Assembly (NCBI GenBank): GCA_965215885.1
Contig: CBDCEW010000093.1
Location: 32,001 to 96,000 of the forward strand
Direction: 5' to 3'
Source: Candidatus Moanibacter sp.
GTDB lineage: Bacteria > Verrucomicrobiota > Verrucomicrobiia > Opitutales > UBA2987
DNA: 64,000 nucleotides
Each line of letters starts with the position of its first letter. Position 1 is the first letter of the stretch. Shown in pieces: positions 11,151-39,633 of this stretch. The notes beneath the pieces are model-generated. The model saw only the letters and a program-made list of their open reading frames with translations, was not told the origin of the DNA and did not search any database. The translations under genes and the position numbers were made by a program.

Positions 11151-12761
11151 CTATTCACTATCATCCAGCGAGCGGCCCTCCTCAAGCCCCCGGAGCTTTT
11201 CCTCGATGAGCTCAAGCCTTTGGACAAAGTCCCGATTTTCTTCCCTGAGTTTGGCGATCTCGGATTCTCTCTCGTCCAGCAACCGCAGGAGGGCCTGGAT
11301 GGAGGCGAGAGCGACCCCTGCTGTATCCACAGTTGTGATCGCTTTATCACTGCCACCGAGGCCAAACGCCTCGAAGAAATCCTGCGCCATCGGCCCGAGG
11401 TGCCGCACGCTGCCGTCCTCCTTCTTGTAATTCCAGGTCTCGATTGGGAGCGCGGCGAGCTTCTCGAGCAGTTCCCGGTAATCGATTTCCTCAAAATTCT
11501 CCTTCAGGTTCACATCGGAAGCATTCGTCCATGCCCCGCCCGGGGTGACGTGAGCACCGCTCGCCATCTCGAGAGGTTGGTCTGGAGTAGTGATGCCAAT
11601 GCCCACATCCCCGTCATTCGCCACGAACAGTGCGTCGCTCACACTGCCGTTGGCCGAATCGAGGGAATGGCCGTCCGGGATATCACCGGGATCGATCGCC
11701 GTGCTCTGCAGGGTGCCGTCGGGGAAGCGGAAGCCGAGCCTTTTAGAATGGACGGTACCGTCTGTCTCCAGGGTGCCGTTTTCATGAAGGGTGAGGGCGA
11801 GCCCGGGTTCGGCATCCTGCATATAAGTCTGAAACCAGAGATCGGAATCTGCCGATATATTACTCCGCCCATTCGGATAGGCGTCACCGCTCGATTGGTA
11901 GCGGCCATCCCATTCGTTTCCCGGGCCAACGAGCTGGAATGTGTAAACGAGGCCCGATGTTAGGAAAGGCGCCTCCTCAAAGTCCAAGTCGAGCAATTGC
12001 TCTTCTCCATTTATGATATTGAAAGTCACAGTATCCGAAAAGAGGAGGGGGCCTGTGGTTCCCTCGCCGAAATAGACGCGAATGTTGGTCAAGAGAAATT
12101 GGAGAGTCTCCACCGGGAATAGCTCGATACCAGTTAGTTTCCCATTCTGGCCGGCCGTAAAGGATTGCCAGACATTAGACATGTCGGTATCGGCGTCATC
12201 GGTCATCTGCGACTGATCGACAAATGCCTGACCGGCCAGTATCCTGGACGGCACAAATATTTCGAGTTCGGTGCTATCGGTCGTAACCGCGTTCAACGTG
12301 ATCTCCTCCGCTACGTTCTCGGCGATCATGGCGTAACCCACCGCCCCGATGCGCTGGTCGGGGGAAAGTTGCAAGAGCCCGTTGCTCGTCCCGTCATCGA
12401 ACCAGACGCGGATCGATACGTTATCGTTCTCCGTAAAGACCGATGCGGGGATGGAAGTCATATTCAGGATCGATTCATCGCCCAGGAAGACGGAAAACAG
12501 CCCGTTCAACACCTCTGATTGCACCGCATTCGCCGGGATTGCCTGCCCCACATCCGTCCCGTCGTTATGCCAGAGAACCGCTTCCGTGCCCAGGGTTACA
12601 TCCTTGACGAGCGAGAATCGAAACTCGCCCACACCGCCAAAATTCTCCCCGTCCACCACTACCCGGCCCTGGTAGGTGATGAGACTGGGAACCTGCGCCT
12701 CAACCGCAATCGGCCAGAGTAGAACCGATAAGCAGAAAGAGAAATAGACAGAGTATTTCAT
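11151..12761 (-). CDS. F6: secreted fibre-like protein with C-terminal peptidase S74-type intramolecular chaperone
   Basis: Signal peptide (...AVEA-QVP), shared YQGR domain, NASDVNLKEN...HLGPMAQDF motif and terminal coiled coil. Confidence 0.8.
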   Translation of the reverse strand: MKYSVYFSFCLSVLLWPIAVEAQVPSLITYQGRVVVDGENFGGVGEFRFSLVKDVTLGTEAVLWHNDGTDVGQAIPANAVQSEVLNGLFSVFLGDESILNMTSIPASVFTENDNVSIRVWFDDGTSNGLLQLSPDQRIGAVGYAMIAENVAEEITLNAVTTDSTELEIFVPSRILAGQAFVDQSQMTDDADTDMSNVWQSFTAGQNGKLTGIELFPVETLQFLLTNIRVYFGEGTTGPLLFSDTVTFNIINGEEQLLDLDFEEAPFLTSGLVYTFQLVGPGNEWDGRYQSSGDAYPNGRSNISADSDLWFQTYMQDAEPGLALTLHENGTLETDGTVHSKRLGFRFPDGTLQSTAIDPGDIPDGHSLDSANGSVSDALFVANDGDVGIGITTPDQPLEMASGAHVTPGGAWTNASDVNLKENFEEIDYRELLEKLAALPIETWNYKKEDGSVRHLGPMAQDFFEAFGLGGSDKAITTVDTAGVALASIQALLRLLDERESEIAKLREENRDFVQRLELIEEKLRGLEEGRSLDDSE

Positions 12762-13227
12762 ATGAGAGACCGCTCATCCTGTCAGATTGTGCCTCTCCCG
12801 TCAGCAGAAATTTTCGCCTTCTAACGGGGTTTACAACTTCCCACGTAGCCGAGCCAGCAACGGCGCGGAAAATGCAACTCGTTCAATCCGCCTCTTATAC
12901 AGAGTTGGCTACCTCCATACCGAAAAGCTCCCTCTTTCCGCTACAGATAGTGCTGCGAAAGAAAACACCCCACACAATGCTTGTCATTGCGAGGAAGAAT
13001 GACGAAGCAATCCAGGTACTCGACCTTCCGTAGTCCTTCCGCCAACCTGGATTGCGTAACCGCACCGGCAACGGCGCGGAAACCCCTCGCCCATTCTCCG
13101 TTTCGCCGTCTCTCCGTTTCTTCCTCTTCCCCCATCCATTGCTCTCTCCGCCTCTTGTGCAGAGGCGGCTACTAATCCCTATGAAAGACGACCTGGCACA
13201 CTTCGATTCAGGCGGAAACCAGAGACG

Positions 13228-16200
13228 CTAAACGCTACTAAAAGATCCATCACTGAGAGGATCAAAGTTCTCATCGAAACAACCCACAAGTTTTCCCGTG
13301 CCAAAGCCTGCATCATGTGTGCCGTCCAATAAGGTCGTTGCTATATTGGCGCCGCCGCTCGAATCCACAAATATTGAATTGCTGCTCCCCTTGATGCGAC
13401 TGCCGAAGATATTCGCGTTTCCACCATCACAGTTTACGCCCGTTCCATTCGTATCGGAAACAACGATATCACTATCAGTAATGGTGGCCGCACCGGACGA
13501 AATGAGGACACCGTTATTTGCGCTACCGCCATTCGATACCGTGATAAAAACATCTTTAAGGACCACGAGACCCGTATTATTCAGGATAACCCCAGTCGCC
13601 GGGTTTGAGCCGCCCCCATCACCTTGTGCGTCTATATCGGAGTCCTGAAACGTGGCCGTCGCACCATCAATCTCTACGGCTGTGGGTCCATCGCCACTGG
13701 CGCTGACCGTGACTTTACAAAAGACCGGATTAGCGCCGCTTTCATTGGCTTGAACGCTCACAGCGACGGGAGTACCGTTTGCGAGGTCGGAGAATATCTC
13801 TACTTTATATATCGAAGGGGAGGTCGAATCGATTATCAAGGCTCTACCACCTCCGGTATTGGATACGGTCAAGAAGCGTAACTCTGAGTTCGATGCCCCA
13901 GTATTCAATATCGTGGTACCCGTGCCGGTATTACTGCCGGTGATAATCGTAATCCCAATCCCCGACCCCTCGATATCGACATAGTTTTTCATGCTCAAGG
14001 TGCTTGTTCCCAGGTCAAAAATTCCCGGCTCTATCTTCAGGAGATAGGGAGTCGAGCTGCCGGCCGAAATGCCGGCCAGCGCCGCGAGCAAGGCCGTCCC
14101 GTTTGCCGTATTGCTTCCAACCGGGCTGACCACGACCGTCTGCACCAAGTGAGCCGAGCTATCCCCGTCATGAACGGAGACATCAACTCCGTCGACCAAT
14201 CCCACCGGCCCGATATCGCCATTGCCGTCGATGACGATATTGTCGGCATCAATCGAGAAATCGCCGTTACCCGAGTCCACATCGATCGCAAAATTTCCAC
14301 CGCTCGTAAGGGAGCCGTCGGCCAGGACTGTTGATGCCGAGCCCGCCGTAAAGCTTTTCGCCGTGACGTCGCCGCTATTATTCACGACGAATTTGGCAGT
14401 CCCCGCGACTTCCAACTCCATGAGATTAGGCGAACTCCCGCTAGTCTCGTTTAAATGCGCCAAGGGCGTTGCGGCGGTCGAAATACTCTGAGCCGATCCC
14501 GGCACGACCTGGACATAGTCGCTAAGCCCGCCTCCCCCGGTCGCGTCCGCATGATCGTGGGTGGCGCTGGTAAAGTCCGCGATCGTTGGCTTGCCCAAGG
14601 TCTTGTTTGTCAAGGTCTGCGAATCGCTCGTGCCGACGAAGTTGCCGGTCACACCGTGCACACCGGAGCCGGCACCGGCACCGGCATGAGCGGACACATC
14701 GACCCCGTCCACCGTGCCGGCCAAAGTTAGGCTTCCCGCCAGATTGACAGAGAAATTGTTCGCCACGACCACAAAATCCTCAATTGAGGCATCGCCCCCC
14801 GCCACATCGATGGTAAATGCGGAGCTGTTCGATTTGGTGATGCCGTTTGCATCAAACGTCGTGGAGGAAAAACCTGCCGTATAACTGGTAGCGATCACAT
14901 TCCCGTCATTTTCAACGACAAATCTGTTTGATGGACCAACTTCCAGCTGGATCAGGTTGGGCGTGTTGCCTCCGTCATTCTCTCTGATATGAATCAAAGA
15001 TGTGGCGGCGCTGTTGATATTCTACACTGCACCCGGAACGATCTCCACGAATTCGCTGCCGGAATTGAGAGATACCCCACCGACATTCGTTAAGTTGAAT
15101 CCGTTCAGATCCAAATCGCCGCTGAAACTTCCAGTGCCGTTTACTGATAACCCGTCTGAATATACTATGCCACCGACTTCGAGATCGCCATCCGGGCTCA
15201 AAAGAGTCATACGTCGACGCAAAATTCCAGCGTTGTCTCTTACCCAGAAGGTCAGTGTTGAGGCCTCAAGATCTGGGTCCACTTATCGTGGCGACGGACG
15301 AAATCCGCCCAATGTCTTCAATCACACCATTGCTGTCCTCCACCTGAAAGAGGATACCGGTGCCGATCTGATCTTCTCCGTTACCTCCGGCGATTGTGTG
15401 GGTTACTGTGACCACGTCCGTGTTATCGCCCGACATCGAATCTTCCTCAGTAACACCTAACGTTCCCGAAACCGTCGTGTTTGCGTTGGCATTTATTGTC
15501 GAATCGGAGCTGTTCAGGTTAATGTCACCGTTAAGAGCATTGAGGTTCACATCCCGGTCCGAGTTGAGCGCAAGGTCACTGGATCCCCCCGTCGCCGAAA
15601 CGCTTACGGGTCCGTTACCCGTAATATTGCTTCCGACTCCGGTAATGTCGTTTCCCCCCAAATTGAGATCCCCACTCATCGTGTCGCCATCCAGATTGGC
15701 ATAGCGGTCATCGACGTCGACGGTATCGAGGTCGCCCTGATCGACCGTCCCCGTCCTTGATATTGTCGCTCAGGATCGTCTCCGAGGCGATCTTGTCGCC
15801 CGTGACGGCATCATCCGCGAGTTGATCGGTATCGACGGACCCGTCGGCAAGAAAGTCCGCCCCGAAGGCACCTATCGCGTCCAGGTTCTCATCGATACAA
15901 CTGTGGCACGGAAAAAGCGCTCCCACCGAGAGGGCCTTCAAACTGCGAGTTGATCCCCACAACATTTGCAGTGTTGTTGATTGAATTCATGTCGCCCACC
16001 ATGCGGCTGTTTCGAATGGTCGCGGTGCCATTGTTCACAACTTCGATACCGACAGATTTTGTGCCCATAGCAACCGCCTCTACCTGATCGACGAAAATAG
16101 AGGCGTCATTAATCCAGATACCAAAAATTCTATTAACTGTATTATCGCCCGACACCTCGATACTGATTCCAAAGAGGTCCGCCGTGGCAGAATTCGTGAG

Positions 16201-17148
16201 AATTACCCCAAAGGCATCGTTTCCTAAGTCAGCTTCTAAGTCTATAGCTACATCAGTAAGGTCAAACCTTCCTCCATTAGATGAAAATCCAGCAGGAGAA
16301 ACTCCGTCCACAACTTCGACGTTAACATGAAGCGCGAAAACTTCCTGTCCTGAAGCGGTGCGGAATCCGTTAAGGCCGCCCGCATTGACAACCTTCAGAC
16401 TTCGGAAGGCACAATTATCTACTGCCTGGGTTTCGGTCGTCTTTCCTATAACATAGATCCCCCGCCCTACGATTCTGGTAAGATCTCTTCCGGAGCCCTC
16501 AATATGAACATGTGACTTCAATGGTATGTGCCCATTTACTCCCAAATCGAATGTTCCCGGCTCCAGCTTCACCAGATAGGGCTTTGAAGAACTATTGTCC
16601 GTAATTCCATTCAACGCCGCGACAAGGGCGTCACCATTTTGCTCTACCGAGCCGCCCTCCACAGGTCCGACGAAGATCGTCGTAATACCCGGATTCAGGA
16701 CCTCCTGTGCCACCATCGCGAAGCCCACCGATGTGATGCGCTGGTCCGGCGATAGTTGCTCGAAGGCATTGGCCTGATCGCGGAACCAGACGCGCAAATC
16801 GACCTCGCTGTTATCGACAAAGATGCCGGGGGAAATGGGGACCATGAAGTGCGGCGAACTGCTATCGCCGAGGCCCACCGAGTAGAGGCCGTTTGTCACG
16901 GCAAGCGATACAAAACCATTGGGTTCGCCGTTTGTCCCCGAACTGTTCCCATTGTGGCTCCAGAGGACAGCTCCAGTACCATCTACGAGCACGAACTTAA
17001 AATCGCCGCTCCCGTCGAAGTTGACGCCGTTCTTAACGACACGTCCCTGGACGTTGATAATTTCCGGGACAGCCGCTCGGGCCGTGGAGCCCAAAGCGAA
17101 AGCGACAAGAATGAGAGAGATGAATCCACTCTTACGATATTTCATCAT
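13228..17148 (-). pseudogene. F5: secreted fibre-like protein with two beta-helix-like domains; broken reading frame (~1305 aa reconstructed)
   Basis: Five ORF pieces are collinear with the paralogs. Single extra bases near 15912, 15750 and 15283, and TAG at 15022-15024 where F3 has CAG. Confidence 0.75.
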
Positions 17149-17717: not shown

Positions 17718-17792
17718 CGAAAAGCTTCCGCTTTCCGCTACTGATAGGGCGCAGATTTCTCAATAATCGTAGCGGAAAGCGGAAGCTTTTCG
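17718..17792. repeat. REP-like doublet, family GTAGCGGAAAGCGGRAGCTTTTCG
   Basis: Inverted pair. Other copies at 1366-1389, ~12921-12944, 18393-18457, 34349-34423 and 61430-61494. Confidence 0.8.
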
Positions 17793-20493
17793 TATTACTA
17801 TCCGTCAGAACTTAGTTTTTTGAACACGTCTATTCTGTCAGTGAAGTATAAGAGGCTGGTAATCAAAGTATTGCGATCGACCCGTCGCCGCGTAGATCTG
17901 CCGAGGCGAGCAAGGGTCGTGACGAGGTTACCCAAGGGAAGTAGGAGTTTCCTTCTTCATTCGCGTTAATTTGCGGTTCTCTTCTTTTTCCCGCTCAGCG
18001 GGATTGCGGCTATGCTGTGCTAGGCTTTCTGCAATCCATTCATTGAGAGCGGTCTGCGAGCGATCCGTATCTGTCTGGCGATTCTCCTATTTCGAGCCCG
18101 TTCCATCGGGGGATAAACCCGCTTCCTGGCCTGAGCCTGCCGAAGGCCTACAATCCCTCGCGGGGTGGTCGTTCTGAATTCCTTAATACCGCCAGGCTGT
18201 AGGAGAGGCTTCATGCCTCGATCCGTATCCCCTTTTTTCATTGCTGAAGGATGGAGGAAAATTGAACGTGCGCCGGAGCGCCCAGCCTGCCTCGGCGAAT
18301 CACGCAGTGCGAAGACGGGTCCCACCCTGCCGTACGGCAAGGTTGTCAGCGGTGGACCGGGCCCTCCGGGCACGGTGGTCTCACGCCCGATTCGAAAAGC
18401 TCCCGCTTTCCGCTACATACGTCTATTCGCCCTAGGAAAATTCGTAGCGGAAAGCGGCCCAGGAGATGTCGGTGGTGCAATCCCCCCGCATGCCACGAAA
18501 GCCCCCGGATGGCTATTTTTTCGGCGAATTCGAAGGGCAAAACCCGACAGATTCCTAAGGGTTCTCCGCCGAAAGTGAATCATCTTCAAATTCCAGAGTC
18601 ACTGAGACATCCTCGACGACAGATTGCGCGCAATTGCCACAGTCGATCTCGATATCGAGACGTTGCCCGCTGAGGCAGAAGAAGGAGTTGGTAGTATCAG
18701 AGCCATCGTTAACTCCCGCACCAAGTGTAACCGTCATATTGGTATCGCTTCCATTGAGTCTGGCAATTATGTCTGCCGATTCCGAAAAGCCGGGCGGCGT
18801 TTCTGCATGGACGTACATCTTCGTTACTTCGAGATCAGAATTGCAAACCATGAAGTGAAGTTCGCTGAATTCTGGAAATTGTATTCCCGGACCCGCAAAG
18901 ATAGAGGACCCTGCTTCCGCCTGTCCATCCAACACAAAGCTCTCGGTAAAGACGGCCTTATGAAAATGCTGATCGAGGTTGATGCCGTCGACCAATCCCA
19001 CCGGACTGATGTCGCCGTTGCCGTCGATACCGATATTCATGGCATTTACCGTAAAATCATTATTACCGGATCCCGCATCGACTGAGAAATTCCCGCCGCT
19101 CGTGAGGGAGCCATCGGCAAAGACAGTTGTGGCACTTCCCGCTGTAAAACTGTTCGCCATGACGTTGCCCTGATTATCGACTGCGAACTTATCCGTCCCC
19201 CCAACTTCCAACTCCATTAGATTAGGCGTACTTCCGCTCGTTTCGTTTAAATGCCCCAGGGTCGTTGCCGCGCTCGCAATCGTCTGGGCCGATCCGGGTA
19301 CGACGAGGACCAAACCGCTGAGTACGCCCCCGCCCGAGTTGCCCGTATGACTGTGCGTGGCATTGGAGAAGTCCCCGATCGTTGGCGTCGTCAGGGTCTT
19401 GTTGGTCAGGGTCTGGGAATCGCTGTTACCGACAACGCTGCCGGTGACTCCGTGCACTCCGGAACCGGCGGCGGCGTGGTCCGATAGGTTCACTCCGTCC
19501 ACAGTGCTCACGTTGATGATCTTGTTGGTTCCCACGTCGAAGTTGCCGCTCATTGCGTCTGAACCGTCCCGTTCGAGATACTGGAGGTGGTCGTCGTCAG
19601 CGTTGCCGGTGAGCCCGCCGTGATCGACCGGTGTCCCACCCAGGCCGCCACCGTGGTCATGTCCCTCTATGTCCACCCCATCGACCAATCCCACCGGACT
19701 GATATCGCCGTTGCCGTCGATGCTGATATTCATCGCATCAATCGTAAATTCACCGTTCCCCGAATCGACATCGACTGCCAGATCCCCGCTCGTCGACAGC
19801 GAGCCGTCGGCCAGAACGGTCGATGCGAAACCCGCCGTAAAACTCGTCGCGGTGACACCCCCGGCATTTTTGACCACGAACTTATCGATACCCCCGACTT
19901 CCACTTCGATGAAGTTCGGCGAACTTGGGCTGTTCTCGTTCAAATAAATAACGGAAGTTGCCGCGCTCGTAATGTCCTGGGCTGATCCGGGTACGATCCG
20001 CACGGAACCGCCACCGCTCATGTTGTCGGTATGACTGTGGGTAGCGTTCGAGAAGTCCGCGATCGTCGGCGCCGTCAGGGTCTTGTTTTTCAGGGTCTGG
20101 CTCCCGTCCGTTCCGACGAAGCTTCCCGCCACAAAGTGCACACCGGAACCGGCGGCAGCGTGGGCCGACACGTTCACACCGTCCACCGTGCCCACGTTGG
20201 TCACATTGTTGTCTTTCAGGTCCAGGTCGCCGTCAAACGTCGCCTCTCCGGCGCTCAATGTGCCGCTGATGGTTACGTTCCCTGATGCATCGATCTCGAA
20301 ATTGTCAGCCGTGACGATCAAGTCTTCTCCCACCGCGTCGCCCCCGGCCACATCGATCGTAAAGGCCGAACTGGTCGATTTTGTTATGCCGTCTTCCCCG
20401 AAGAAGGTCGTTGAGGAAAATCCTGCCGTGTAGCTCGTCGCCACGACATCACCGTCATTGTCAACGATAAACCGGGCCGATGGCCCCACTTCA

Positions 20494-22387
20494 CAGGGTA
20501 AAAGGATTCCAGGAAGCAACTAGCTGATAAGCAAGAAGATAAAAAAAGAGCTAAACAAACCCGAGGGAATCAGTCATGTTAAGATGGGATGAAAGACAAA
20601 AAATCTTACCAACTGAATCCTTCGATAGATCGTTTAACTCTGCGTCTGGTCCTGCCCGAAGAGCAGGAGCGATTCAATGATCTATTGAAACAACATCATT
20701 ATTTACACAGTGCGGGCAGCGCAGGAGAGACCCTGCGCTATGTGGCGCAGATCGACGGGCAATGGATGGGCCTGCTCTTGTGGGGGGCCGCATCCTACCG
20801 GCTGAAGGATCGAGACGAATGGATCGGGTGGGACGGGGCGCAACGGCATGCACGATTGAAACTGGTAGTACAGAACCGGCGTTTTCTGATTTTGCCCGGG
20901 GTGGATCTTGCAAATTTGGCCTCCAAGACGTTGGGTATGTGCCTGAGAGTCTTAGCCGATCACTGGCAGGAGGCTTTTGGCTATCGTCCCTTAGTAGCGG
21001 AAACGTTCGTGGACCCACAGATTCACCGGGGCACTTGCTACGAAGCGAGCGGGTGGACGCCCTTGGGCTTGAGCGCGGGATATGGCCGCCAACGCGAAGA
21101 TTTCTATCAACGCCATGAGCGTCCCAAGCAGATCTGGGTCAAACCCCTCAAGGCTAATGCCCTTGAGCTTTTGCGCGCTTCAGGGCCATTGCCCGCGGCA
21201 CAGAGCCAGGCGCTCAATGAAACCGATAACTCCCATGCGGTCTGCCTCAAAGTGGAACAGATGAGCAGCCTGTGGGAACGCTTCAATCAGATAGAAGACT
21301 TCCGTCGTAAAGCGGGCCTTAGATATCGGCTCGCCACGGTCCTGAGCATGATTGTGCTCGGCACGATGTGCGGCAAACAGACCCTCAAGGGCATCGTGCG
21401 CCTGGCCCATCATCTCAATCAAGCCCAATTGCGCGCCTTACGCTCCTGGAAAAACCCCAAAACAGGCCGCTATAAGGCCCCTTGCTATGATGTCTTCTAT
21501 CGGGTCTTGCAAAACGTAAAGGCCGAGCTCTTCGATAAAACCCTCACCGAATTCATCTGCTTACAAGACGGCTGTTTGCCCCGCGATATTGCCGTCGACG
21601 GCAAGACCCTCAAAGGCACAAACACCGAAGAATCAAAGGCTCTGCACCTGGTGGCCGCAGTCGATCACCAAAGCGCTCAAACCTTAGCCCAAGTCGCTAC
21701 CGCCGATAAATCCAACGAGATCACCGCCGCCCAGACTCTCTTGCGAAAGATGCCCATTTTGGACGGCTCCACCTTCACCTTCGACGCCATGCATAATCAA
21801 AAAGAAACTGCCCACATCGTCGTCGAAGAACTCAGTGCTGACTATGTTATTCAAATTAAAGACAATCAGCCCAACATGCATCAATACGCTCAGAATCTCT
21901 TCAGCTCCACCCCCTTTTTCTCCACCAACCCGTGGACAATGACCATGGGCGACTCGAAATACGTCAAATAGCAACCCATTCTCTAAGCGCTCCCTCTGCC
22001 GGCCTGCCCCATGCCCGCCAGTTCGCCTGTGTGCAACGCACCTTCCATTATCCAAACAAAGCTGAACCTTCCTCTGAACGCTCTTACTACGTAAGCAGTC
22101 TCGATCCCGCCGATTTGAGCCCTCAACAGTTCCTCTCGAAAATTCGCAACCATTGCTCGATCGAAAATAAAAATCATTACCCCAGGGATCGCTTCTTCGA
22201 TGAAGATCGATGTATGATCCGTAATCATAACGCAGCCAGAATTCTTGCTGCATGCAGGCAACTGGTTCTCAGCCTCAAGTCTTCCATGGGCGCTGAATCC
22301 ACTCCCGCACTCTGTGATGATTTCGTCTTTAACTTACATAAGGCCATCAATATCATCACCTAATGCTCCGAGAATCAAAATACCGTG
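20494..22387 (+). mobile_element. ISAs1-family IS, 1894 bp
   Basis: Imperfect TIRs cagggtaaaaggattc / cacggtattttgattc; 10-bp TSD ccccacttca (20484-20493, 22388-22397). Confidence 0.9.
20589..22363 (+). CDS. DUF4338-like domain fused to ISAs1 transposase, split across a -1 frameshift
   Basis: ORF1 has HHYL...NRRFLILP...ETFVD and IAVDGKTL, KSNEI, FDAMH, IKDNQP. ORF2 (21932-22363) has HGRLEIR and RNHCSIEN. CCCCCTTTTT lies at the junction (~21910-21919). Confidence 0.82.
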
Positions 22388-27147: not shown

Positions 27148-30100
27148 TTACTGCGATACGATATTTTCCGCCGGGCCGGATTCGAATTGAAATTCCAAAG
27201 TCACGGAAATATCATTGACGAAAATTCCGAAGTTGGACTTGGAAAATTGGATGCTGATTCGATCACCCGCATCCACGGAAAATGATGAGGTAGAGGTGAA
27301 AACGGTCGGAGCCGACGAGACCGAAACAGCCATTGGAGTGTTTCCACCCATCTTATTTACGGTCACGCTCACGAAATCGCCTTCCCCAAAGCTTCCCCCC
27401 TCTGCTCGAACCTTCATCTTCTTAACGGTACCGGCCGAAGTGCATATCATGAAGTGTTCCTCGATAGCATTTTCAAACTGAATCCCCGGCCCTGCGTAAC
27501 CATCGTCCACGGTGCCCTCAACCACGAAGCTCTCGGTAGAGGTGGATCCGTGAAAATGCTGATCGACGTCGATGCTGTCGACCAGTCCCACTGGACTGAT
27601 GTCGCCGTTTCCGTCGACCGCGATATTCATGGCATTGACCGTAAACCCGTTACTGCCTGAGTTCGCATCGACTGCAAAATTTCCGCCGCTCGTAAGGGAA
27701 CCGTCGGCCAGGACGGTAGTAGCATTACCCGCTATAAAACTCGTCGCCATGACATTGCCCTGATTGTCGACCACGAATTGATTCGTACCTCCAACTTCCA
27801 GCTCCATCAGATTGGGCGTATTTCCGCTCGTCTCGTTTAAATGCACCAGGGTCGTGCCGGCAGTCGAAACGGTCTGGGCCGATCCGGGCACGATCTGGAC
27901 GTAATCGCTGAGCGATCCCCCGCTTGCGTTATTCGTATGACCATGGGTAGCGCCGGAGAAGTCCCCGATCGTCGGCGTGGTCAAGGTCTTGTTCGTCAGC
28001 GTCTGGGAATCGCTGTTACCGACGACGCTGCCGGTCACCCCATGCACACCGGAGCCGGCGGGGATTTGAGCGGACACGTCGACTCCGTCCACCGTGTCCA
28101 CATTATTGATACTATTGCCTCCAACATCGAAATTACCGCTCATCATGTCCGAGCCGTCCCGTTCCAGATACTGGGTGTGGTCGTCGTCAGCGTTGCCGGA
28201 GAGCCCGCCGTGATCGATCTGCGACCCACTACCGCCGCCGTGATCATGTCCCGATAGGTCCACCTCATCAACCAATCCCACCGGACTGATATCGCCGTTG
28301 CCGTCGATGCCGATATTCATCGCATCAATCGTAAATTCGCCGTTCCCCGAATTCGCATCGATAGCAAGATCCCCGCTCGTCGACAGCGAGCCGTCGGCCA
28401 GTACAGTCGATGCGAAACCCGCCCTAAAACTCGTCGCGGTGACACCACCGGCATTGTCGACCACGAATTTATCGCTACCCCCGACCTCCACTTCAATGAG
28501 TTTCGGTGAACTTTGGCTGTTCTCGTTCAGATGAATAACGGAAGTCGCCTTTTCGAATGGGGCGCTCGTGACACCACCGGCATTGTCGACCACGAATTTA
28601 TCGCTACCCCCGACCTCCACTTCAATGAGTTTCGGTGAACTTTGGCTGTTCTCGTTCAGATGAATAACGGAAGTCGCCGCGCTCGTAATGTCCTGGGCCG
28701 ATCCGGGTACCACACTCACGAAATTCCCAGAGCTAAGCGCCCCCCCGCTCATGTTGTCGGTATGACTGTGGGTAGCTCTCGAGAAGTCCGTGATCGTCGG
28801 CGTCGTCAGGGTCTTGTTTTTCAGGTTCTGGCTGCCGTCGGTGCTGACGATGCTTCCCGTCGTCACTCCATGCACACCCGAGCTGGCAATGGCGTGAAGG
28901 AACACATTCACACCGTCCACCGTTCCCACGTTGGTCACATTGTTGTTTTTCAGGTCCAGGTTGCCGTCAAACGTCGCCTCTCCGGCGCTCAATGTGCCGC
29001 TGATGTTTAGGTTCCCTGATGCATCGATCTCAAAATTGTCCGCCATGACGATCAAGTCCTCTCCTGCCATGTCGCCCCCGGCCACATCGATCGTAAAGGC
29101 CGTACTGGTCGATTTTGTTATGCCGTCTTCCCCGAAGGTCGTTGAGGAAAATCCTGCCGTGTAGCTCGTCGCCACGACATCCCCGTCATTTTCTACTATA
29201 ACCCGGTCCGATGACCCCACTTCAAGCTCGATCAGATTGGGCGTGTTGCCCCCGTCATTCTCACTGAGGTGAATCAGGGATGTTGCCGCACTGCTGATAC
29301 TCTGCACCCCACCGGGAACGAGCTTCGCGAATTCTCCTCCCGCGTTCAGGCTCAGGCCGCCCACTCCCGTCAAATTGAACCCGTTCAGACCCACGTTGCC
29401 CCCGAAACCTCCGCCGCCTGAAACATCCAGCCGCCCGCTCACAGACAGATCTCCTTCCAGGCCCGAAAGTGTCATCCGCCGACGCAGAATCCCACTACTG
29501 TCTCTTACAAGGAATTCCATCTCGGAATTATCCAGATCCGGTTCATTCCCTGCACCGATCGTCCCTATGGCCCCAACATCTTTAATTGCTCCGTTCCCGT
29601 CCTCCACTTGAAAGAGGATGCCCGATCCAATCAGATCTCCTCCCATATTCCCGGAGATCGTGTGGGTCAGCGTCAGCACATTGGTCGTATCGCCCAATAG
29701 CGTATCCTCCACCGCAACGCCCAATGTTCCAGCAATCTGAGTGTTTGCCTTGGCCAATATCGTCGAATCCGAGGCGTTGAGATTGATATCGCCGTTGAGT
29801 GCATTCAGATTGATATCTCGGTCCGAGTTTAGAGCGAGGTCATTGGATCCACCTTCGGCCGATATGCTCAATGGACCCTCCGCCGAAATCTCGGGGCCGA
29901 CACCGTTAATATTGTATCCCCCCATATCGATGGGGCCGGCCATGGTGTCGCCATCCTGATTGACATAGCGGTCATCGACATCAACGGTATCGAGGTCGCC
30001 CTGATCGACCGAGCCGTCCACAATGTTGTTGCCCGTGATCGTTTCCATCGCGATCTTGTCGCCTGTAACTGCGCCGTCAGCGAGTTGATCGGTGCCCACC

Positions 30101-30603
30101 GAACCCTCCGCCAGGTTCTCCACCTCCCTCGCCACCAGCGCCCGGGCAGCTGGTGCGATGCGCTGATCGGGTCCGAGTTGAGCGTTGCCGCCCCCCACAT
30201 TATCGTCGAACCAGACCCGCAGAAAGAGAATCTCCTCGCCATTGAAAGCGCCGTCCGGGATCGCGCCCATGTTCGTGATGCCCGTGTCTCCAAGCAAAAC
30301 TGAGAACAGGCCCTTCGTCACAGTCAGGCTGACCGGATCCGTCGGGAAGGTGCCTCCATCGAACCCGGAATTGCTCCAGAGCACAACACCCGGTTCATTG
30401 AGGATGGCGAATCGGAAGAGTCCTTGTCCCTCGAAGTTGCTCCCGTCACTACTGACGGCGCGCCCCCGGTAGGCGACGACGTTCGCCGGGTCCGGTTGCG
30501 GCATCAATTCCTGCACCGTCACAATGGACGCAATCAAGGTGCTTAGCAGAACTGCGCCTGGAATCGTTCGGCGAGTTCGATCTTTCCTAACTAAGCTTCT
30601 CAT
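27148..30603 (-). CDS. F2: secreted fibre-like protein, 1151 aa, intact
   Basis: Signal-like N-terminus, shared YRGR domain, three repeated stalk modules, HxH motifs and a ~100-aa C-terminal tip. Confidence 0.85.
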   Translation of the reverse strand: MRSLVRKDRTRRTIPGAVLLSTLIASIVTVQELMPQPDPANVVAYRGRAVSSDGSNFEGQGLFRFAILNEPGVVLWSNSGFDGGTFPTDPVSLTVTKGLFSVLLGDTGITNMGAIPDGAFNGEEILFLRVWFDDNVGGGNAQLGPDQRIAPAARALVAREVENLAEGSVGTDQLADGAVTGDKIAMETITGNNIVDGSVDQGDLDTVDVDDRYVNQDGDTMAGPIDMGGYNINGVGPEISAEGPLSISAEGGSNDLALNSDRDINLNALNGDINLNASDSTILAKANTQIAGTLGVAVEDTLLGDTTNVLTLTHTISGNMGGDLIGSGILFQVEDGNGAIKDVGAIGTIGAGNEPDLDNSEMEFLVRDSSGILRRRMTLSGLEGDLSVSGRLDVSGGGGFGGNVGLNGFNLTGVGGLSLNAGGEFAKLVPGGVQSISSAATSLIHLSENDGGNTPNLIELEVGSSDRVIVENDGDVVATSYTAGFSSTTFGEDGITKSTSTAFTIDVAGGDMAGEDLIVMADNFEIDASGNLNISGTLSAGEATFDGNLDLKNNNVTNVGTVDGVNVFLHAIASSGVHGVTTGSIVSTDGSQNLKNKTLTTPTITDFSRATHSHTDNMSGGALSSGNFVSVVPGSAQDITSAATSVIHLNENSQSSPKLIEVEVGGSDKFVVDNAGGVTSAPFEKATSVIHLNENSQSSPKLIEVEVGGSDKFVVDNAGGVTATSFRAGFASTVLADGSLSTSGDLAIDANSGNGEFTIDAMNIGIDGNGDISPVGLVDEVDLSGHDHGGGSGSQIDHGGLSGNADDDHTQYLERDGSDMMSGNFDVGGNSINNVDTVDGVDVSAQIPAGSGVHGVTGSVVGNSDSQTLTNKTLTTPTIGDFSGATHGHTNNASGGSLSDYVQIVPGSAQTVSTAGTTLVHLNETSGNTPNLMELEVGGTNQFVVDNQGNVMATSFIAGNATTVLADGSLTSGGNFAVDANSGSNGFTVNAMNIAVDGNGDISPVGLVDSIDVDQHFHGSTSTESFVVEGTVDDGYAGPGIQFENAIEEHFMICTSAGTVKKMKVRAEGGSFGEGDFVSVTVNKMGGNTPMAVSVSSAPTVFTSTSSFSVDAGDRISIQFSKSNFGIFVNDISVTLEFQFESGPAENIVSQ

Positions 30604-31377: not shown

Positions 31378-32125
31378 ATGAGCCCACCTGACGTGCCGAG
31401 TTAAGCCTCTGTTTGAAAGTCCGAATCAGTGCACCCCTTTTGTTCCGCATTGTCAGAGGTGGACCGGGACGGCTCTTTCGAAAAGCCCGGATGTTCATAG
31501 AAGTGCCAGCCGTCTTGGCCCCGCCGTACAGCTTCCCTCTTCGTTCCGCTAAAAGCGCAACACAAAGTCGGAATGTGCTACTCAGCCAACGCTCCAAGCC
31601 CATTTCATGAGTGCCAGCCACAAAAAGGCACAAAAAGCGCAAAAAAGGAATGTGAAATCATTCCTGAACGCCAACTCTTTCATTACTAACCATTTATCAC
31701 CCGCCCTTAAGAAGCCGTTTGAAATGATAGGGGTTTTAAACTCCTGATCACCGCCAAGGAACAGTGGGATGGCTACCGCATCAGCCGGCTAATTCTTTGC
31801 GATTCCTTTACCACCGGGGGCTTCCCCATCGTCTCGCGCTGAGCGGGACTTCCGCCTTCCTCAGCATCTTGCGGCTTCCTCCCCCATCCGTTACCCTTCT
31901 TTAATCCGTAGCCAGAATCCTCCCGTCCCATCGTCACGAACAATCCTGGCTTCCTCTCTTCTCTTTGCGTCTTTGCGACTTTGCGTGAGAAATCTTTCAC
32001 TTCCTCATCCGTTGCCCTTCATTTCCCGGCTTCCCGGAATTGCCAAACTTCTCCTCGTGAGTATTGAACGGGCAAGCGCAAATCGCTCGCGAGCGAGCTT
32101 CCTACCCTCACCGTATACCGGTCTA

Positions 32126-34041
32126 GACCTTATCCGAAAAGCTACTGATTGGCCGCAAAGAGGCGCAAAAGGCGCAAGAAAAACTTGAGAAAAATCATTT
32201 TTTGGCTTGATAAAAAGTGTCGCAACATGCTAGTGTTTAACAACCTAAGATTAAGAAAGGAGTTAAACATGCCAACATGTGCGACAGAGGAGAACAAAAG
32301 CGATAAGACGCCCCTTAGCAACCTCATTCTGCCGGTTCCAGACACGGATTTCCGTGATTTTCTGGATGAAGTTGAAGAATTGCCGGGTTCGCGGCGCAAA
32401 TCATCGAGGCGATCGAGAAGGATCTGGACGCCCATGCGCGTGAGAAGAAGAAACTTCGATTGGAAGATCGAAGGTTCTTTGAAGGGCGCACAGCGGAGCT
32501 GCCGGAGCTGGACATCGAGGAGGAGAATATTCTGGCTGCTGAATTGAATCTTGGGGCAGGCCGGCCGCGGATGCCGGCTTATGCGGTATACGTGTTCGTG
32601 ATGCTTCGAGGGTTTCTGGGTTCGTTGACCACGAAACCGGCACGGCGGTTTGTGCGCGAGTCGATGAGCTTGTACGGATTTTTGCAGAGCGGGGGACTGA
32701 GAATGCCGGCGGTGACGACGATTCTGGAGAACGTGAACCTGGTCAGCCATACGACCCGCGAGTTGATCTTTGATAAACAGATTGGGTTTATCCTCCAGGA
32801 GCAATGGGACGATTTCGGGAAGCTGACGATCGACAGCACCTCGGTGAAAGCAAACAGCTGCTGGCCCACCGATGGGAAGATTCTGAGCGGTCTTTTGATG
32901 CGGGCCAATCGTTTGGGTCAGAAGTTGCATGTCTTCGGGCTGGAGGATTTTCGCAAGGGATGGGTTGGGCGTTGGCTGGAGGAAATGGACAAGCTGGAGT
33001 TTCAGATTTGTCTGGCCGCGGGCAAACCGAAGTCGAAGGGCAAGCTGAAGAAACACTACCGGCGGTTGCTCAAGCGGGGCCGCAAGGCGGCCGACTCACT
33101 AACGGGGGAACTGAGCCATCTTGAAGAGGGCCTGTCGATGGATTCACTGCCTCCCACTCGCCGGGAGCTTCTGGAGCGGGCATTGAGCCAGATCAGGGGC
33201 GATATTGCCGACGCCAAGCGGGTTGTTGAGTATGCTCATGATCGGGTGTTTCACGAAAAGAAGCTACCGTCCACACAGAAGGTCCTGAGCCTCTCGGACG
33301 GATCGGCGGCCTACATCAAGAAGGGCAGCCGCAATCCAGTGATCGGGTACAAGCCACAACTGGTTCGCAGCGAAAACGGTTTTGTCACCAGCCTGATCGT
33401 ACCGCAAGGCAACGCGGCAGACTCCATTGAGCTGGCGCCGGCCATCGGCGATTCGATCAAGCGCACCGGTGTCATTGCTGAACTGGTCAGCACCGATGAC
33501 GGATATGCTTCGGCGAAGGGACGCAAGGAGGTGCTGAGCATGGGGGTAAAGCAGATCAGTATCAGTGGGGCGAAGGGCAAGAAGTTGACCACCCCCGAGG
33601 ACTGGGAGAGCGAGGCGTATCGCGAGGCACGCCGCGATCGCTCCGCAGTGGAGTCGCTGATGTTCACGATTAAAGATGGATTTGCCTTTGGCGAACTCGG
33701 CCGCCGCGGCATCGATGCGGTAGGCGATGAACTGCTCGAGAAGGTTCTGGCCTACAACTTCTGCCGCATCATACTGATGAAGAAACGCCGAGGGGAGGAA
33801 CTGGAACAGGCAGCCTGAATCTGACCGCTTTGAAGCTCAGAGAAAAAAGCACCACGGGATGAGTATGCCTCCAGACAGCGGCAAATATACGTATTGTGCA
33901 GCAAGCCACGCCGATGGCCGCTCAATACCTGCTCATCGGCAGCGCCGGCAGCCTAAAACCCGAAACCTGCCAGCCATAGGCTGGTCCGCCCGTGGCGGAG
34001 AACCTTAAACCGCCCGCTCGAAAGGCTTTTCGAATGGGGTC
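32126..34041 (+). mobile_element. IS element copy 2 (inverted relative to copy 1), 1916 bp
   Basis: Same TIRs as copy 1; 6-bp TSD ggtcta (32120-32125, 34042-34047). The transposase (32269-33818) lacks one G near 32382. Confidence 0.92.
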
Positions 34042-34516: not shown

Positions 34517-37500
34517 CTAACGAAGTCGAATCAGTACTTTGGCGAATCCGCCGATTGTACCCTCGATAGTCAAGCCTAGGATGTCCACAGAAGGACAGCC
34601 AACGTCTGCATTACCGAAATTTCCGCAGCCCCCCCACATCTTCTCCCGCATCAATATTGCCCTCCGTTTTGGTCATTACTATTCCCGCTATCGCAACAGT
34701 TACGGGCAAGTTTCCACCTGCTACATCCTCCACCGTAACGCCGATCGCATCAGTACCAGGATCTGGATCTGTTGCGAACGCCCTCCCTGAAGCATCAATC
34801 GCCACTACAGAGCCGGCATTCATTCCTTGAGTGGAGGTCAGAGTCACCGCCACATATCCCTCAGAATTTGCATTTCCGTTACCGAGGAGGACATTCGTCG
34901 TAGAGGTCTCCCCGGACACATCCAAATCTTCATCGACCGTAATGACAGTGCCGGAATCTGAATACAAAGTGGGATCGCTAAGCGAGAGGTCAATGGTGAG
35001 ATCTCGTGGGTTCGAATTCGCGATAAAGGAGAGGGAACTCGTGGACGTCGTGTTGTCGATTTTGATGGCGCCGGCGAGAGAGAGATCGTCTCCAAATCGG
35101 ATCAAATTCCCCCCATTATCCACGGTACCTTTCAAAGTGATCGAGTTGCTGGGAGTCGTCCCCAACTGCGTGTCGCCGTCGACCACGAGACTTCCATCCG
35201 TGGAAAGTCCGACATCGGTCGAATTCGGCATCAGTACATCGACCCCGATCAGGGTGTCGGTACTACTCGCCGTCACCCCCTCGAGATCCACAACGATTCC
35301 CGTCGACGTGGTGTCATTATTGCCCGTCGTGTAATTCCCGTTCAGATCGACTTCAATGGCGGTGACCGAACCGGAAGTATTGTGGTCATTGTTTCCAGTA
35401 ACGACGATGATCGATCGCCCGTTGGCGCCGGTTAATACCGTCGATGAAGTCACCTTAAGGTTGGGAGATGCAGAAGAGCCTCCGTCGTCGTCGATTTCGA
35501 CCCCGGTATCTTCGAAGGCAGTGATGCTGTTTCCTTTTACAAACGCATCCTGGAGATCCACGGACGACCCAATAGTCACCGAGTCCGAGCCCGAACTGCC
35601 CGAAATTGTAATTCCCGACCCCTGCAAAAACGAGAGAATATCACTCGCGCCGTCGGCCACGGGATCGGTCCCAAGGGGTACACTGATCGTTTGAAAGAGG
35701 TTCTGTTGCACCGCGGCCGAGGAGATCGCCATGTCGAAGTCATTCAGCACATTCTGCACATCAGTATTAGCGGAATTGTCGAACTCATCCTTCACCCCAA
35801 TCAGTCCAGCTCCTGTAGTACCTACGGTTGATCCCAGCTCTGTTTCCGTGAAATAGCTGCCGTCATGATGGTGCAGCGCGGAGGCGTCTGTACTACCGGT
35901 TAGAGTAGAGACGTCGCTGGCCACGAGGTCGTCGTCGTCGCCGGCGGCGCCGAAATCGACCGTGCCGACGTTGTTGATACCGTTGCCCTCCAAATCGAGA
36001 TTGTTGGAAAAGACCGACGCTCCAGCGCTGAGAATGCCGCCTATGGTTACGTCCCCGTTCCCCTCGATGGACATCACCTCATTTAACCCGTCCGGATCCC
36101 GAGTGAAAAATCTGAGGGTGCTGAACTCTGAACCGGGTGACACCTCATCGAGCGTCGCCACGATCTCCCCAACGGCTTTGTCGCTTCCGGCGCTGTTTTG
36201 TGTCATCAGGAGAATTCCAGTCCCGATCCCGTCAGCAGCCATCGGGCCGCCAATTTCATGCGAGAGGGTCAAGACGTCGGTGACACCAGCAGTGTTCATA
36301 TCATATTCGATCACCTCAAGCGTTCCGTCGATCTCCGAACTGGCGTTGAGCTTGATTGTCGTATTCGAGGCGTTGAGGTTAATGTCGCCATTGAGGGCGT
36401 TGAGGTCGAGGTTACCCCCGTCGCCCGCCGAAACTGCGATCCCGGCCGAACCGGTGAGATTGCCGCCGATGTTAAAGATGTCATTGCCGTTCATATCGAT
36501 ATCGCCGTGAAAGATGGAGACACCGGGCATATTGATCCCGACCACGAGCGCCCCGGTGAGGGTGAGGTTTCCGGCCCCGTCCAGGACCATCGCTTCATTA
36601 AATCCAAAACCGCCCAGTCGTGTGAAAAAACTCAACTTGCTGTCAATGGAACCAAACGACGCATCGGTCGCCACTGCCTCAATCCGCCCAATGGTCTCAC
36701 CGGTCCCGAAATCACTCTCCGCATCAAACCGAAGCGCCACGCCGATGCCGTCGTCGCCATTGCCGCTGTCGACCTCGTGACTCAATTGCGCGACATCGAC
36801 CACGGTATTATTTTCAGCGACACTGGATACCGCCGTGAGAAAAATAGTCGAGCTCGACGTGGCCAGTGTTATCGAGCCGAACGGCGCGTTCACGTTGATA
36901 TCGTCGTCGGAGCTGAGGGTGAGCGTATTGCCCGACCCTGTCGCTGAGACGCTCAATCCCGCGTTGCCGGTAATATTTTCGCCTGCGTTGGTAATGTCGT
37001 TCCCGTTCATATCGAGCTCGCCCATGAGAGACGTGTCAGCGTTCAGGTTGATGGTCGTCACCGAGGCATTGAGATTGATGCTGCCGTCGAGAGCGTTGAT
37101 GTTCACGTCGGAGAAAGAGGAACTGATCTTGACCTCGCCTTTGGCCGTCACGATGACCTTTCCGTCGGCATCCATCGTGAGGTCACCTCCCTCTCCGTCC
37201 CCGGCCATGAGCGCCAGTGAACCGTTCTCCGACTGAACTGATGGAGTCCGGAGTGTTCCTGAAACGCTGACCGTATTGTCAAACGTGTTGATGTTCCCGG
37301 TCCAGTTGTTGTCGTCTGCCAGTATTCCGAATTCAGAGGAGTCGAGCCCGTCCAACTCCTCGGCGTCGCCAACGGATCCGTCATCATCCGTGTCGTAAGT
37401 CTCCTTATCGAGAAAATCACTCGAAGCGCTGCCTTCCAATGTCGCGGCATCTCCCGCTACCTTGGCGAAGAAGGCACGCCCCAACAATGCGATGCGCTGA

Positions 37501-37913
37501 TCGGGAGCGAGCTGCTCATTTCCCCCACCCAATTTGTCGTCGAACCAGATGCGCAGAAAGAGAATCGGGTAATCGGTAAATACGGAGTCCGAAATCGGAT
37601 CCTGGCCGGAATCACCCAGAAGGATGGAAAACAAACCTTTCGTCACCTGGAGGGTGACAGCGTTCATCGGAATGAAACTTCCATCGAGCGGTGAATTGCT
37701 CCATTGGATGGTCCCGGTATCATCCACCAGGGCAAAACGAAAATCGGCCATACCGTCGAAGTTATTGCCGTCGCTCCCAATTGCCCGCCCCTGATAGGCG
37801 ATCACGTTTTCCACCGGCGTCGGTGCCTTCAAAACGCCGACAAAAAGCAGCGTTGTGAGACCGACCGGTAAGGCGACTGTCTTTAAACTAACGCATAGCA
37901 TTGAAGTCTTCAT
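34517..37913 (-). CDS. F1: secreted fibre-like protein, most divergent paralog (~1131 aa if the G7 run is read as G6)
   Basis: Signal peptide, YQGR domain and DAATLEG/DAEELDGLDS motifs. The ORF stops at 34611, but removing one G at 34629-34635 gives ...DILGLTIEGTIGGFAKVLIRLR-stop. Confidence 0.78.
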
Positions 37914-38565
37914 TTTTTCTCTCCTGAGTTGATCTGGTTAATTGTGTACATTAAAAGATGCATGGGATTTCGGACCGGATATTTGCGAATTCGGTAACGC
38001 CATAGTTATCAGTCGCTCGCGAGCGAGCTTCCTACTCTCACAGTAACCAAGCGTAGGAAGCGCGCGCGCGCGAATCTTCTTTCTATTCCGACACTCTATA
38101 CTACTAACTTGAAAATGCTCGTTTTCTTGAGAAGAAATTCCTCAACCGAATATGTAACCCATTGATGCTCAATAGATTTTATTCTGTTCCCAAGAAGAGA
38201 TTGTAATGGCTAAGAAACCTCAATGGATCGCAGAATTCTCGGATGGCACAGGCAGAGCCCTTCCGATTTATTCCCCTTCTCGTAGAGTCTGCTGTACGGA
38301 AGATCCGCGGTTTTCTCAAATACATGTTCAATTCCTCTTCATTCGCGTCCATTCGCGTTCATCTGCGGTTCTCTTCTTCTTTTTGGGCTGCGGCTTCGCT
38401 GCGCTAGGGCCCTTTCCGCTTCCTTGGCAAGACGCATCCCGCTCAGCGGGAGGAGACAGCCCGGTGATCTCTGTGGCCCCTCTTCAATCCCAACCTCCTA
38501 ATTCCCTCTCCTACATCCTCCGAAGCTTTAGCGAAGGAGGACATTCACTCTTCGTGGACCTGGGC

Positions 38566-39633
38566 CTACTCAGGAACAATCTCATTCTGCAACAGCACCT
38601 GCACCCGCATAAAGCGCTTGTCGGCCGATTGCACTGATATGAAGTCCTCGTAGCTCACTTCGACGAATCCATCCATGTCCGGCGTAGTCCCAAGACTTAC
38701 GGGAGATAAATCTGTCCAGCTGCCTGAAGCCAAATCCCCGTTGACCTCGACAATATACGTAACGGCCGCGGGAAAAGGCCGACGAAGAAAGGTAAGGGTG
38801 AGAAAATCCTCTGTCGATGATCCGCTTACTTCCCCCTCCAGACTCATGGTCCCCATCCCGCCAAACATCGGCTGCGGGATCTTATCCCATCCCGAACTCG
38901 GAGCTGTCGGATCGCTCCCAAGGGCAAATTCAAATCCATTTGGCAATCCGTCGTTATCGAAATTGATAAAGGGACCGGCGTCAGCCGGGTCGGCCGGAAT
39001 GCCGAAGAATCCCTCCTGCCAGCTGTTCGGCAAAAAGTCGCCGCCGATTCCACCGGATAGATCGTTCAGGACTTTAACAAGGAGCGAACCGGAGACCATT
39101 GCCCCCGATCCATCCGTGTAATCGGCCATCACGACGGCATCCGTGTTCCCGGTCACCGTGCCTGCTACGGCAAGCCCGTCTGCCGTAACACCCAGGATCG
39201 GACCCGAATCGACACTCCAGGTCACCGCATCATCGTCCAGAGGCAGGGTCGTATCGTCGTCCATCAGCTGATCCGCCTCGAGTTCCAACGTGTCCTCTTC
39301 GTTGACCTCCGGTGGATCCGCCAGCGGGTCGGATGTGATCTTCACACCGGCAAGATCGTAGAGCTGGCCGGCGAAGCCGTTCTTAACAGTGTAAATCGGC
39401 GTGCCATCTTCGGAGATGCCGACCGCGGTGTCACCGATCGAGGAGTCGATCGTGTAGGGGCCGCCGGAGCTGGTACCCCCGCTGATCCCTATCCCCTGCA
39501 CCGTGATTTCGTAGGGGCCGCCCGACGGAAGTTCGCCGAAAGTGGGACTCCAACAAAGCAAAACAATCAGTCCGATTGTGCCTCCCCCGAAAAAGTAACG
39601 AATAGTGCGACGTAGCAATCTCCTGTGGTTCAT
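38566..39633 (-). CDS. Secreted surface protein, putative partner/anchor of the fibre genes
   Basis: Signal/TM segment, Gly-rich GGPYxI repeat, Ig-like middle, DFLPNSWQ...DNDGLPNGFEFALGSDP motif, C-terminal YIVE...DL...W...FMRV domain. Confidence 0.7.
   Translation of the reverse strand: MNHRRLLRRTIRYFFGGGTIGLIVLLCWSPTFGELPSGGPYEITVQGIGISGGTSSGGPYTIDSSIGDTAVGISEDGTPIYTVKNGFAGQLYDLAGVKITSDPLADPPEVNEEDTLELEADQLMDDDTTLPLDDDAVTWSVDSGPILGVTADGLAVAGTVTGNTDAVVMADYTDGSGAMVSGSLLVKVLNDLSGGIGGDFLPNSWQEGFFGIPADPADAGPFINFDNDGLPNGFEFALGSDPTAPSSGWDKIPQPMFGGMGTMSLEGEVSGSSTEDFLTLTFLRRPFPAAVTYIVEVNGDLASGSWTDLSPVSLGTTPDMDGFVEVSYEDFISVQSADKRFMRVQVLLQNEIVPE

Follow-up and report, generated by a model that had tools for sequence, protein, structure and literature searches.

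Among known systems, those closest to the fibres considered here are the mosaic adhesive trimers (MATs) of Bdellovibrio bacteriovorus. Caulton et al. 2024 (PMC10769870) report 21 such proteins, with a signal peptide and a domain of ~130 amino acids (aa) that is conserved and rich in beta structure, as surface-exposed trimeric fibres with swapped tips, both S74 and non-S74; the N-terminal domain presumably binds a surface element, whose identification is left to later study, and the accessible part of the paper names no binder. Nor is a MAT anchor named in the accessible parts of four further papers (PMC13689555, PMC12428579, PMC12034629, and PMC12750041). Here, we analyzed a window of 64,000 nucleotides from the genome of a Candidatus Moanibacter sp. 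(contig CBDCEW010000093.1; G000:C93:32001-96000 in our numbering), in which six minus-strand genes (F1 to F6) encode fibre-like proteins built on one shared base domain and a further gene encodes a partner protein. On balance we favor, with some reserve, the reading of this array as a chromosomal MAT-type fibre display cassette that carries its own adaptor. The fibres themselves are MAT-like, and the new part of the locus is the partner, a putative adaptor not described before, which a preliminary description of this DNA had named without explaining it; our literature search, mostly without subscription papers, returned no description of the partner or of MAT-like fibres in Verrucomicrobiota.

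Two other systems invite comparison. In the accessible part of Troman et al. 2026 (preprint, PMC13278184), PamT is placed at the tip of the Pam pilus of the Candidate Phyla Radiation (CPR) and given a single truncated Ig domain; a tail-fibre-like gene is noted there in pam neighborhoods, is not linked with PamT, and no fibre binding is proposed. Phage S74 fibres and spikes, such as T5 pb1 and the K1F endosialidase (as cited in PMC10769870), share with F6 the S74 domain and its SDxxxK motif, and PHROG tail-fibre families likewise match stalk segments of the array as well as its S74 region. The array differs from these phage proteins in its signal peptides, its lack of virion genes, its chromosomal synteny, and a base that is nearly absent from viral collections.

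Six fibres with a MAT-like base

The six genes start at 37913, 30603, 27117, 23749, 17148, and 12761 (F1 to F6), where the preliminary description had placed them, and share a domain of ~120 aa at 39-80% pairwise identity. A profile of this base, run over 90,841 six-frame open reading frames (ORFs) of the 6.36-Mb genome, retrieved the six genes and the frameshifted last piece of F3 and nothing else, so that these are the only copies. The Sec-type signal region claimed for each protein was also recovered, in that a charge and hydropathy heuristic detects at the start of all six both a basic n-region (charge +1 to +5) and a 12-mer that is hydrophobic (mean 2.3-2.7), F2 having the least canonical cleavage site. 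Across the family, the base domain begins no more than 70 aa from the N-terminus in 141 of the 150 top representatives.

Like MATs, F1 to F6 have a signal-peptide-like start directly before their conserved domain, and their tips are likewise diversified, with S74 in F6, a decoration-like tip in F1, one family in F2 to F4, and another type in F5. The NCBIfam model of the MAT N-terminal domain (NF053851, Bdello_MAT_N) matches F1, F5, and F6 with E values of 1e-4 to 4e-4 (1.1e-4 for F6) and 20-24 bits against a cut-off of 60 bits; full-length F2 and the 5' ORF of F4 gave no match to it. Among aligned members of the base family, 96 of 102 match NF053851 at E<=0.1 (best 6.7e-9; all under the cut-off), and a match at E<=0.05 is seen for 20 of the 26 divergent ones (best 1.9e-12, 47.3 of 60 bits). 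Outside its base, F6 has its best match in the PDB in the MAT Bd2133 (8OND, E 1.1e-4), which it resembles. From these similarities, we take the fibres to be probably distant members of the MATs; they are likely not a wholly new system, and their base is likely a distant homolog of the Bdellovibrio domain. The earlier picture of exported fibres with a common base and different tips therefore fits the evidence but is not new, and phage-like fibres with signal peptides are not a novelty in themselves, signal-peptide S74 and non-S74 trimeric fibres having been published (PMC10769870). The prospect, raised at the same time, that the N-terminal domain might match a characterized system has come true in part, below the cut-off. 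The array departs from the MATs in the distance of its base, in its Verrucomicrobiota host with no evidence of predation, in the arrangement of its genes in a single tandem array whose site is fixed, in its HxH-type stalks, and in the presence of a partner gene of its own.

The modeled base is a sandwich of seven strands plus a helix (predicted local distance difference test [pLDDT] 85). A fold search with this model returned generic sandwiches only (best Z 6.6), and Foldseek gave no match at E<=0.001 in the PDB or viral libraries. In an atlas search with the base, the three clusters listed were unnamed ones from Bacteroidota and Verrucomicrobiota (0.92-0.93), and one with the partner's head gave scores below 0.9 throughout. 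In the cellular library, the family has 4,528 representatives (50% identity) at E<=0.001, with no Pfam model; loci related to the array come mostly from Verrucomicrobiota records. Payloads in the 55 representatives scanned include Kelch, FGE-sulfatase-like, GDSL lipase, RCC1, FG-GAP, and sortilin-like domains.

Some relatives depart from the fibre layout. The base occurs with a DsbA/thioredoxin-like domain (CxxC, by eye) in L103:9506-10753, L106:9383-10414, L107:9612-10676, and L111:9222-10526; the genomes G002 and G004 have no base copy besides such a fusion, and a partner was not detected in them. The fusion may represent a folding helper, or it may indicate that the base serves as a general socket. 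At L125:5586-8768, three tandem base-domain genes of ~360 aa have tips like phage tail-collar proteins, with no partner within 14 kb. Three proteins (P0004, P0005, and P0007) contain three tandem base-profile matches per chain and are possibly single-chain pseudo-trimers or partial repeats.

The partner protein and its predicted complex with the base

The partner gene (38566..39633, minus strand) is single copy in the genome and encodes 355 aa, comprising a signal peptide, a three-repeat head, an Ig-like-looking middle, a TSP3-like acidic repeat (TSP3_bac, E 2.3e-4, under cut-off), and a C-terminal domain; a tail-like domain of this kind also ends two other proteins of the same genome. Its conserved part is the head of ~60 aa past the signal peptide, which consists of three Tyr/Gly-anchored segments. 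This head (residues 35-92 of the partner; 39358..39531, minus strand; alignment A3) is the predicted clamp, which contacts all three base copies in the model described next.

When three F6 bases were modeled with one head, the interface score ipSAE was 0.87 (0.87, 0.87, and 0.82 in the individual runs), and the best of three controls reached 0.01. At least 91% of contacts recur between runs, with a pLDDT of at least 79 for the partner and of 86-90 for the bases, whose copy number was imposed. Of 157 solved pairs, 116 reach the ipSAE mark, as do 2 of 215 mismatched ones; these frequencies are only roughly valid for a 3:1 set-up with our own alignments. The ~290 modeled contacts place the head against residues 5-15, 62-67, and 94-120 of every base copy, that is, against the YQGR, RVWF, and QLSPDQRI strands, whose motifs had been picked out in the preliminary description. 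Conservation is higher in interface columns than elsewhere in the domain (0.81 versus 0.69 in alignment A2, p 0.0065; 0.57 versus 0.38 in A5), and the five paralogs that we compared retain most of these columns. Because no PDB sequence matches base or head at E<0.3, recall of a solved complex is unlikely. The model thus predicts that the head binds the base trimer 3:1. A Mantel correlation between the paired modules (r 0.56) was set aside as a sign of co-evolution, since it reflects kinship, and a single-sequence fold of the partner was discarded (pLDDT 31.6).

The two modules also travel together. In an evenly drawn phylum sample of 250 genomes, the head was found in 14 and the base in 33, and for 11 of the 14 heads a base match is located no farther than ~4.2 kb away, on the same contig and strand; with an iterated profile, 13 of 14 stand beside a base gene, the remaining one having none in 14 kb. 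A second phylum sample, centered on Planctomycetota, gave heads in 5 of 150 genomes and an adjacent base gene in four of these five. In a sample centered on G286, with flanks of only 1.5 kb, there were four heads in 80 genomes and a base was seen at one of the four. A further sample centered on G285 redrew the genomes of the first phylum sample and is not counted as another phylum. Starting from the fibres, by the search of the N-terminal domain across genomes that the preliminary description had proposed, we tabulated a partner at 40 of 78 loci, 38 of these within 1.9 kb, and at 24 of the 35 loci with both flanks longer than 3 kb. The head profile used here was iterated on the same loci (round 1 alone matched 46 of 111), and the genomes in all these linkage counts include kin and hence are not independent. 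The pairing persists between subtypes that are only about 25-30% identical to F6.

Behind the conserved head, the tails are exchanged. Among 21 partners scanned, dockerin (L135 and L092), GC-dockerin (L138), and MYXO-CTERM (L137) domains score over cut-off and a VPAMP-CTERM tail (L151) under it; other homologs have Ig, PKD, BACON, and FG-GAP domains behind the head, and several of the 21 match nothing. Two arrangements stand apart. In L056:4765-6204, a base domain continues directly, within one ORF, into the last repeat of the partner and then its middle region and tail, which is either a natural fusion of fibre base and anchor or a misassembly. In L136:8029-8865, the head sits at the partner's C-terminus, behind a lipoprotein-like signal and Ig/Fn3-like domains, and an ORF of 1039 aa with a base domain lies directly downstream; judging by this order of domains, the head module would work at either end.

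The partner as a proposed adaptor and the competing roles

In the mechanism that we propose, all seven proteins would be exported by Sec, as their signal-peptide-like N-termini suggest. Each fibre would form a homotrimer, the others through stalk and tip and F6 through an S74 chaperone that, going by its family, would cleave itself at Ser415; a trimer is implied for F6 by the presence of S74. Three beta-sandwich bases would gather at the cell-proximal end and be bound there by one partner, in the 3:1 ratio of the model, and the C-terminal part of the partner may tie the complex to the envelope, by analogy with homologs that end in dockerin or exosortase-type tags. One adaptor gene could in this way serve six fibres, whose interchangeable tips might be mounted for surfaces, glycans, or other cells.

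Several points weigh against this mechanism. It leaves the route across the outer membrane unexplained, and the partner's own tail matches no named anchor in Pfam or NCBIfam. Head repeats 1 and 2 are alike (hhalign E 9e-5), but repeat 3 is not detectably like either of them in this lineage (E 0.4 and 0.28). Base genes stand without a nearby partner at 11 of the 35 full-flank loci, and 21 of the 33 base-positive genomes have no head match. No base reaches the NF053851 cut-off. Since relatives in the family join the base to a DsbA-like domain, it is not fibre specific. As for the complex, the 3:1 set-up is unlike the calibration; the model was run once, for F6 only, on trimmed domains and with our own partly paired alignments; and the conserved surface may also serve trimer packing.

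The main rival to a tether is a partner that only escorts folding or export, by templating trimerization or carrying an outer-membrane signal, and then lets go of a fibre that is anchored otherwise or released. Such an escort would explain the complex model and the linkage equally well, exosortase-type tags are as much sorting signals as anchors, and a catalytic role would agree with the presence of a single partner gene alongside six fibres. We nevertheless regard it as unlikely: the dockerin tails and the long Ig/PKD/BACON spacers of the homologs fit a lasting tether, PamT has a similar head fused to a pilin subunit domain, and the number of modeled contacts is large for a transient escort. 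Less probable still, in our judgment, is a real pair in which the base acts as a display socket of general use, whose payloads are enzymes, shields, or phage decoys, the array not serving adhesion. The varied payloads of the family, the existence of base-DsbA fusions, and the tips of F2 to F5, which match nothing known in Pfam, PDB, and PHROG comparisons, speak for such a socket; F6, by contrast, has the S74 architecture of glycan-binding MATs, and long stalks with tips that diverge faster than the stalks, as observed here, are typical of recognition proteins.

The PHROG matches in the stalks and the S74 region, together with an insertion sequence (IS) in F4 and breaks in F5 and F1, might also be taken to mean that the array is what is left, in a decaying state, of a contractile injection system or a prophage. 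This explanation is largely refuted, and we give it hardly any credence. The base profile finds 1 locus in 2.9 million viral contigs, and a divergent member finds no match in 50,697 phage records and none among plasmids; the site is conserved over three genera, the proteins have signal peptides, and the breaks of F3 are absent from independent runs. The preliminary description, which had itself named a prophage remnant as what would overturn its proposal, had seen no capsid, terminase, tail-tube, integrase, or lysis gene, and Pfam found no such family, nor any sheath or baseplate gene, in 43 selected ORFs of the window.

If the partner is an adaptor, its head may have a wider range. The first ~55 mature residues of PamT (NF058579) form three repeats of the S-x-N-Y type that align with the partner head, and in PamT all three repeats match. 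Two partner homologs match positions 8-81 and 13-78 of NF058579 (E 9.7e-9 and 1.9e-5). A profile-profile comparison of head and PamT gives modest support (hhalign probability 27%, E 6.7e-4), with a score of 26.2 against a maximum of 18.5 in 60 column shuffles, to which the Ser/Gly-rich composition contributes. A motif search retrieved 49 metagenome loci; all eight of those tested pass the PamT cut-off, with a three-repeat N-terminus and a Pam pilin domain. At E<0.01, the head profile from alignment A6 matches 48 of the 49, that from A4 matches 13, and that from A3 matches 5. A base-domain fibre gene lies directly 3' of pamR in two of the 49 (E 7e-15 to A5); many of these loci are too short to judge, and most long ones have a different gene after pamR. 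The window's partner differs from PamT in having no detected pilin domain, and no pam operon is seen: whole-length NF058579 found no match in the host genome, where the controls were also without a match, nor in the partner at E<=1, and NCBIfam found no Pam family among the nine array proteins to which that scan was limited.

These likenesses suggest a bolder extension, which we put forward tentatively and hold to be somewhat less probable than not. Throughout the bacterial phyla, the three-repeat head might serve as a portable clamp of universal use on trimer bases of the MAT type, its single chain forming a pseudo-threefold socket that is bolted onto dockerins, exosortase tags, lineage-specific tails, or a pilin; in Patescibacteria, on PamT, it might cap Pam pili with a swappable, phage-like, host-recognizing fibre, and a Bdellovibrio homolog might be the missing MAT anchor. 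In any case, the locus offers a small, expressible candidate for the binder of the MAT N-terminal domain, in the form of two domains, 135 and 60 residues long, and of a defined 3:1 geometry. Given the size of the base family, a single mechanism could account for numerous "tail fiber domain" genes outside phages, and the link to PamT predicts what sits at the CPR pilus tip.

Array genes, insertion sequences, and flanks

The host genome is an assembly of 105 contigs, 90% complete, with a 16S stretch that looks Opitutales-like. The array is more broken than the preliminary description had it: only F2, F3, and F6 are clearly intact. F6 (11151..12761, minus strand, 536 aa) has its base at 12315-12686, followed by a globular insert, a short beta-helix that bears a VGIG..P..PL loop, the S74 chaperone, and a coiled coil. 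The S74 match (PF13884, residues 415-466, E 3.7e-12, 46.8 bits against a cut-off of 22) is the sole one in the genome, and the SDxxxK motif is present as SDVNLK at Ser415. The preliminary description had cited HxH motifs and S74 chaperones as features of trimeric phage fibres, which normally lack signal peptides; here, S74 is confined to F6, which has no HxH, and HxH to the other five (one in F1, four each in F2, F3, and F4, and one in each of two F5 pieces). F2 (27148..30603, minus strand, 1151 aa) has a base at 30124-30483, an HxH stalk, and a beta-rich tip; a 129-bp in-frame duplication at 28439-28567 is skipped by contigs of runs X1 to X3, with a clear bridge in X2. The tip family of F2 recurs in F3 and F4 (51% and 41% identity to F2), so that, contrary to the earlier statement, the C-termini do not all differ; we found no match for this tip in Pfam, the PDB, or PHROGs. 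F3 (23780..27117, minus strand; base from 26994) is assembled as an ORF of 145 aa and a frame of 977 aa. The two extra bases responsible, at ~26704 and ~26620, are missing in three and four of four public runs, respectively, and the homolog P0218 reads through both; F3 is therefore a gene of 1111 aa.

The remaining three genes carry lesions. F1 (34517..37913, minus strand, the 34517 end being estimated) has its base at 37458-37808, a long stalk, and a tip weakly like phage head-decoration proteins (phrog_122, E 4.4e-3; 4.9e-5 for the homolog P0002). A G-run frameshift near 34629 ends its ORF at 34611 (1100 aa, against 1126-1131 aa in other assemblies) and swaps the last ~35 residues; it is absent in run X2 and P0001/P0206 and present in run X1 and P0208, for which reason an assembly error was rejected. 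The length of the G-run differs between assemblies and between runs, and the shift varies between strains, possibly as a slippage-type variation. F4 (18555..23749, minus strand; base 23297-23632) is split by a 1.9-kb IS, its two parts being in frame (1096 aa together), and P0009, from another assembly, stops at the same IS junction. F5 (13228..17148, minus strand; base 16702-17064) contains a domain of ~250 aa, read by eye as a beta-helix, then a stalk, then a second copy of that domain. The long stalk said to follow the base in F1 to F5 holds for F1 to F4, where it is rich in Gly/Asn/Asp/Ser/Thr, but in F5 the ~250-aa domain comes first. With its frame broken three times and a TAG in frame near 15023, F5 is possibly a pseudogene; genome G006 has an intact homolog of 991 aa, with which the 5' pieces of F5 are collinear. 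Runs X1 to X3 and X5 barely cover 14800-17400 and 18800-20100 (the F5 breaks and the F4 tip), and low cover was not counted as absence.

The array is a chromosomal cassette at a fixed site. Its left flank is holB (DNA polymerase III delta', 5579..6520, plus strand) and its right flank an alpha/beta hydrolase gene (40520..41518, minus strand) followed by mutS, as assigned by Pfam. The same two genes frame the cassette in G001, G005, and G006, with one fibre, one (an ORF of 184 aa), and two, respectively, and mutS lies beyond the hydrolase gene in G006 too. With the host, this synteny spans three genera and cassettes of one, two, or six fibres; being chromosomal and syntenic over three genera, the array is therefore no prophage. 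On the reading that we prefer, the array would grow by tandem duplication and tip exchange and shrink by IS insertion and frameshifts. Promoter and terminator counts within it are at chance level.

Around the cassette, a divergent second thymidylate kinase gene (6517-7870; 24% identity to tmk homologs) lies 3' of holB. A repeat of the 3' end of holB lies at 10438-10620 (region 10313-10620), and G006 likewise repeats the 3' part of holB ahead of its fibre genes, a hint that this may be a hot spot of integration. Past mutS, Pfam finds an SLT domain at 45983-46525. A PEP-CTERM-like protein at 44845-45297 (E 2.7e-4) suggests an exosortase system in this genome.

Two ISs interrupt the array. A DDE element between F1 and F2 (32124..34041, plus strand) has a second copy at 8376-10294 and 119 near-full copies in the genome; its site is empty in contigs of runs X1 and X2. 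The IS inside F4 (20494..22387, plus strand; DDE_Tnp_1 and DDE_Tnp_1_assoc), which we take to be ISAs1-like, has a 10-bp target duplication and 54 near-full genome copies, and the N-terminal region that it carries matches Pfam DruA (E 1e-25). In four runs, the read depth of the array's ISs is ~100 times that of the locus, an IS expansion. The spacers at 17300-18500, 31500-32100, 34100-34500, and 38200-38400 contain common repeats of 80-290 bp that look like non-autonomous mobile elements, and many loose read ends map to these spacers.

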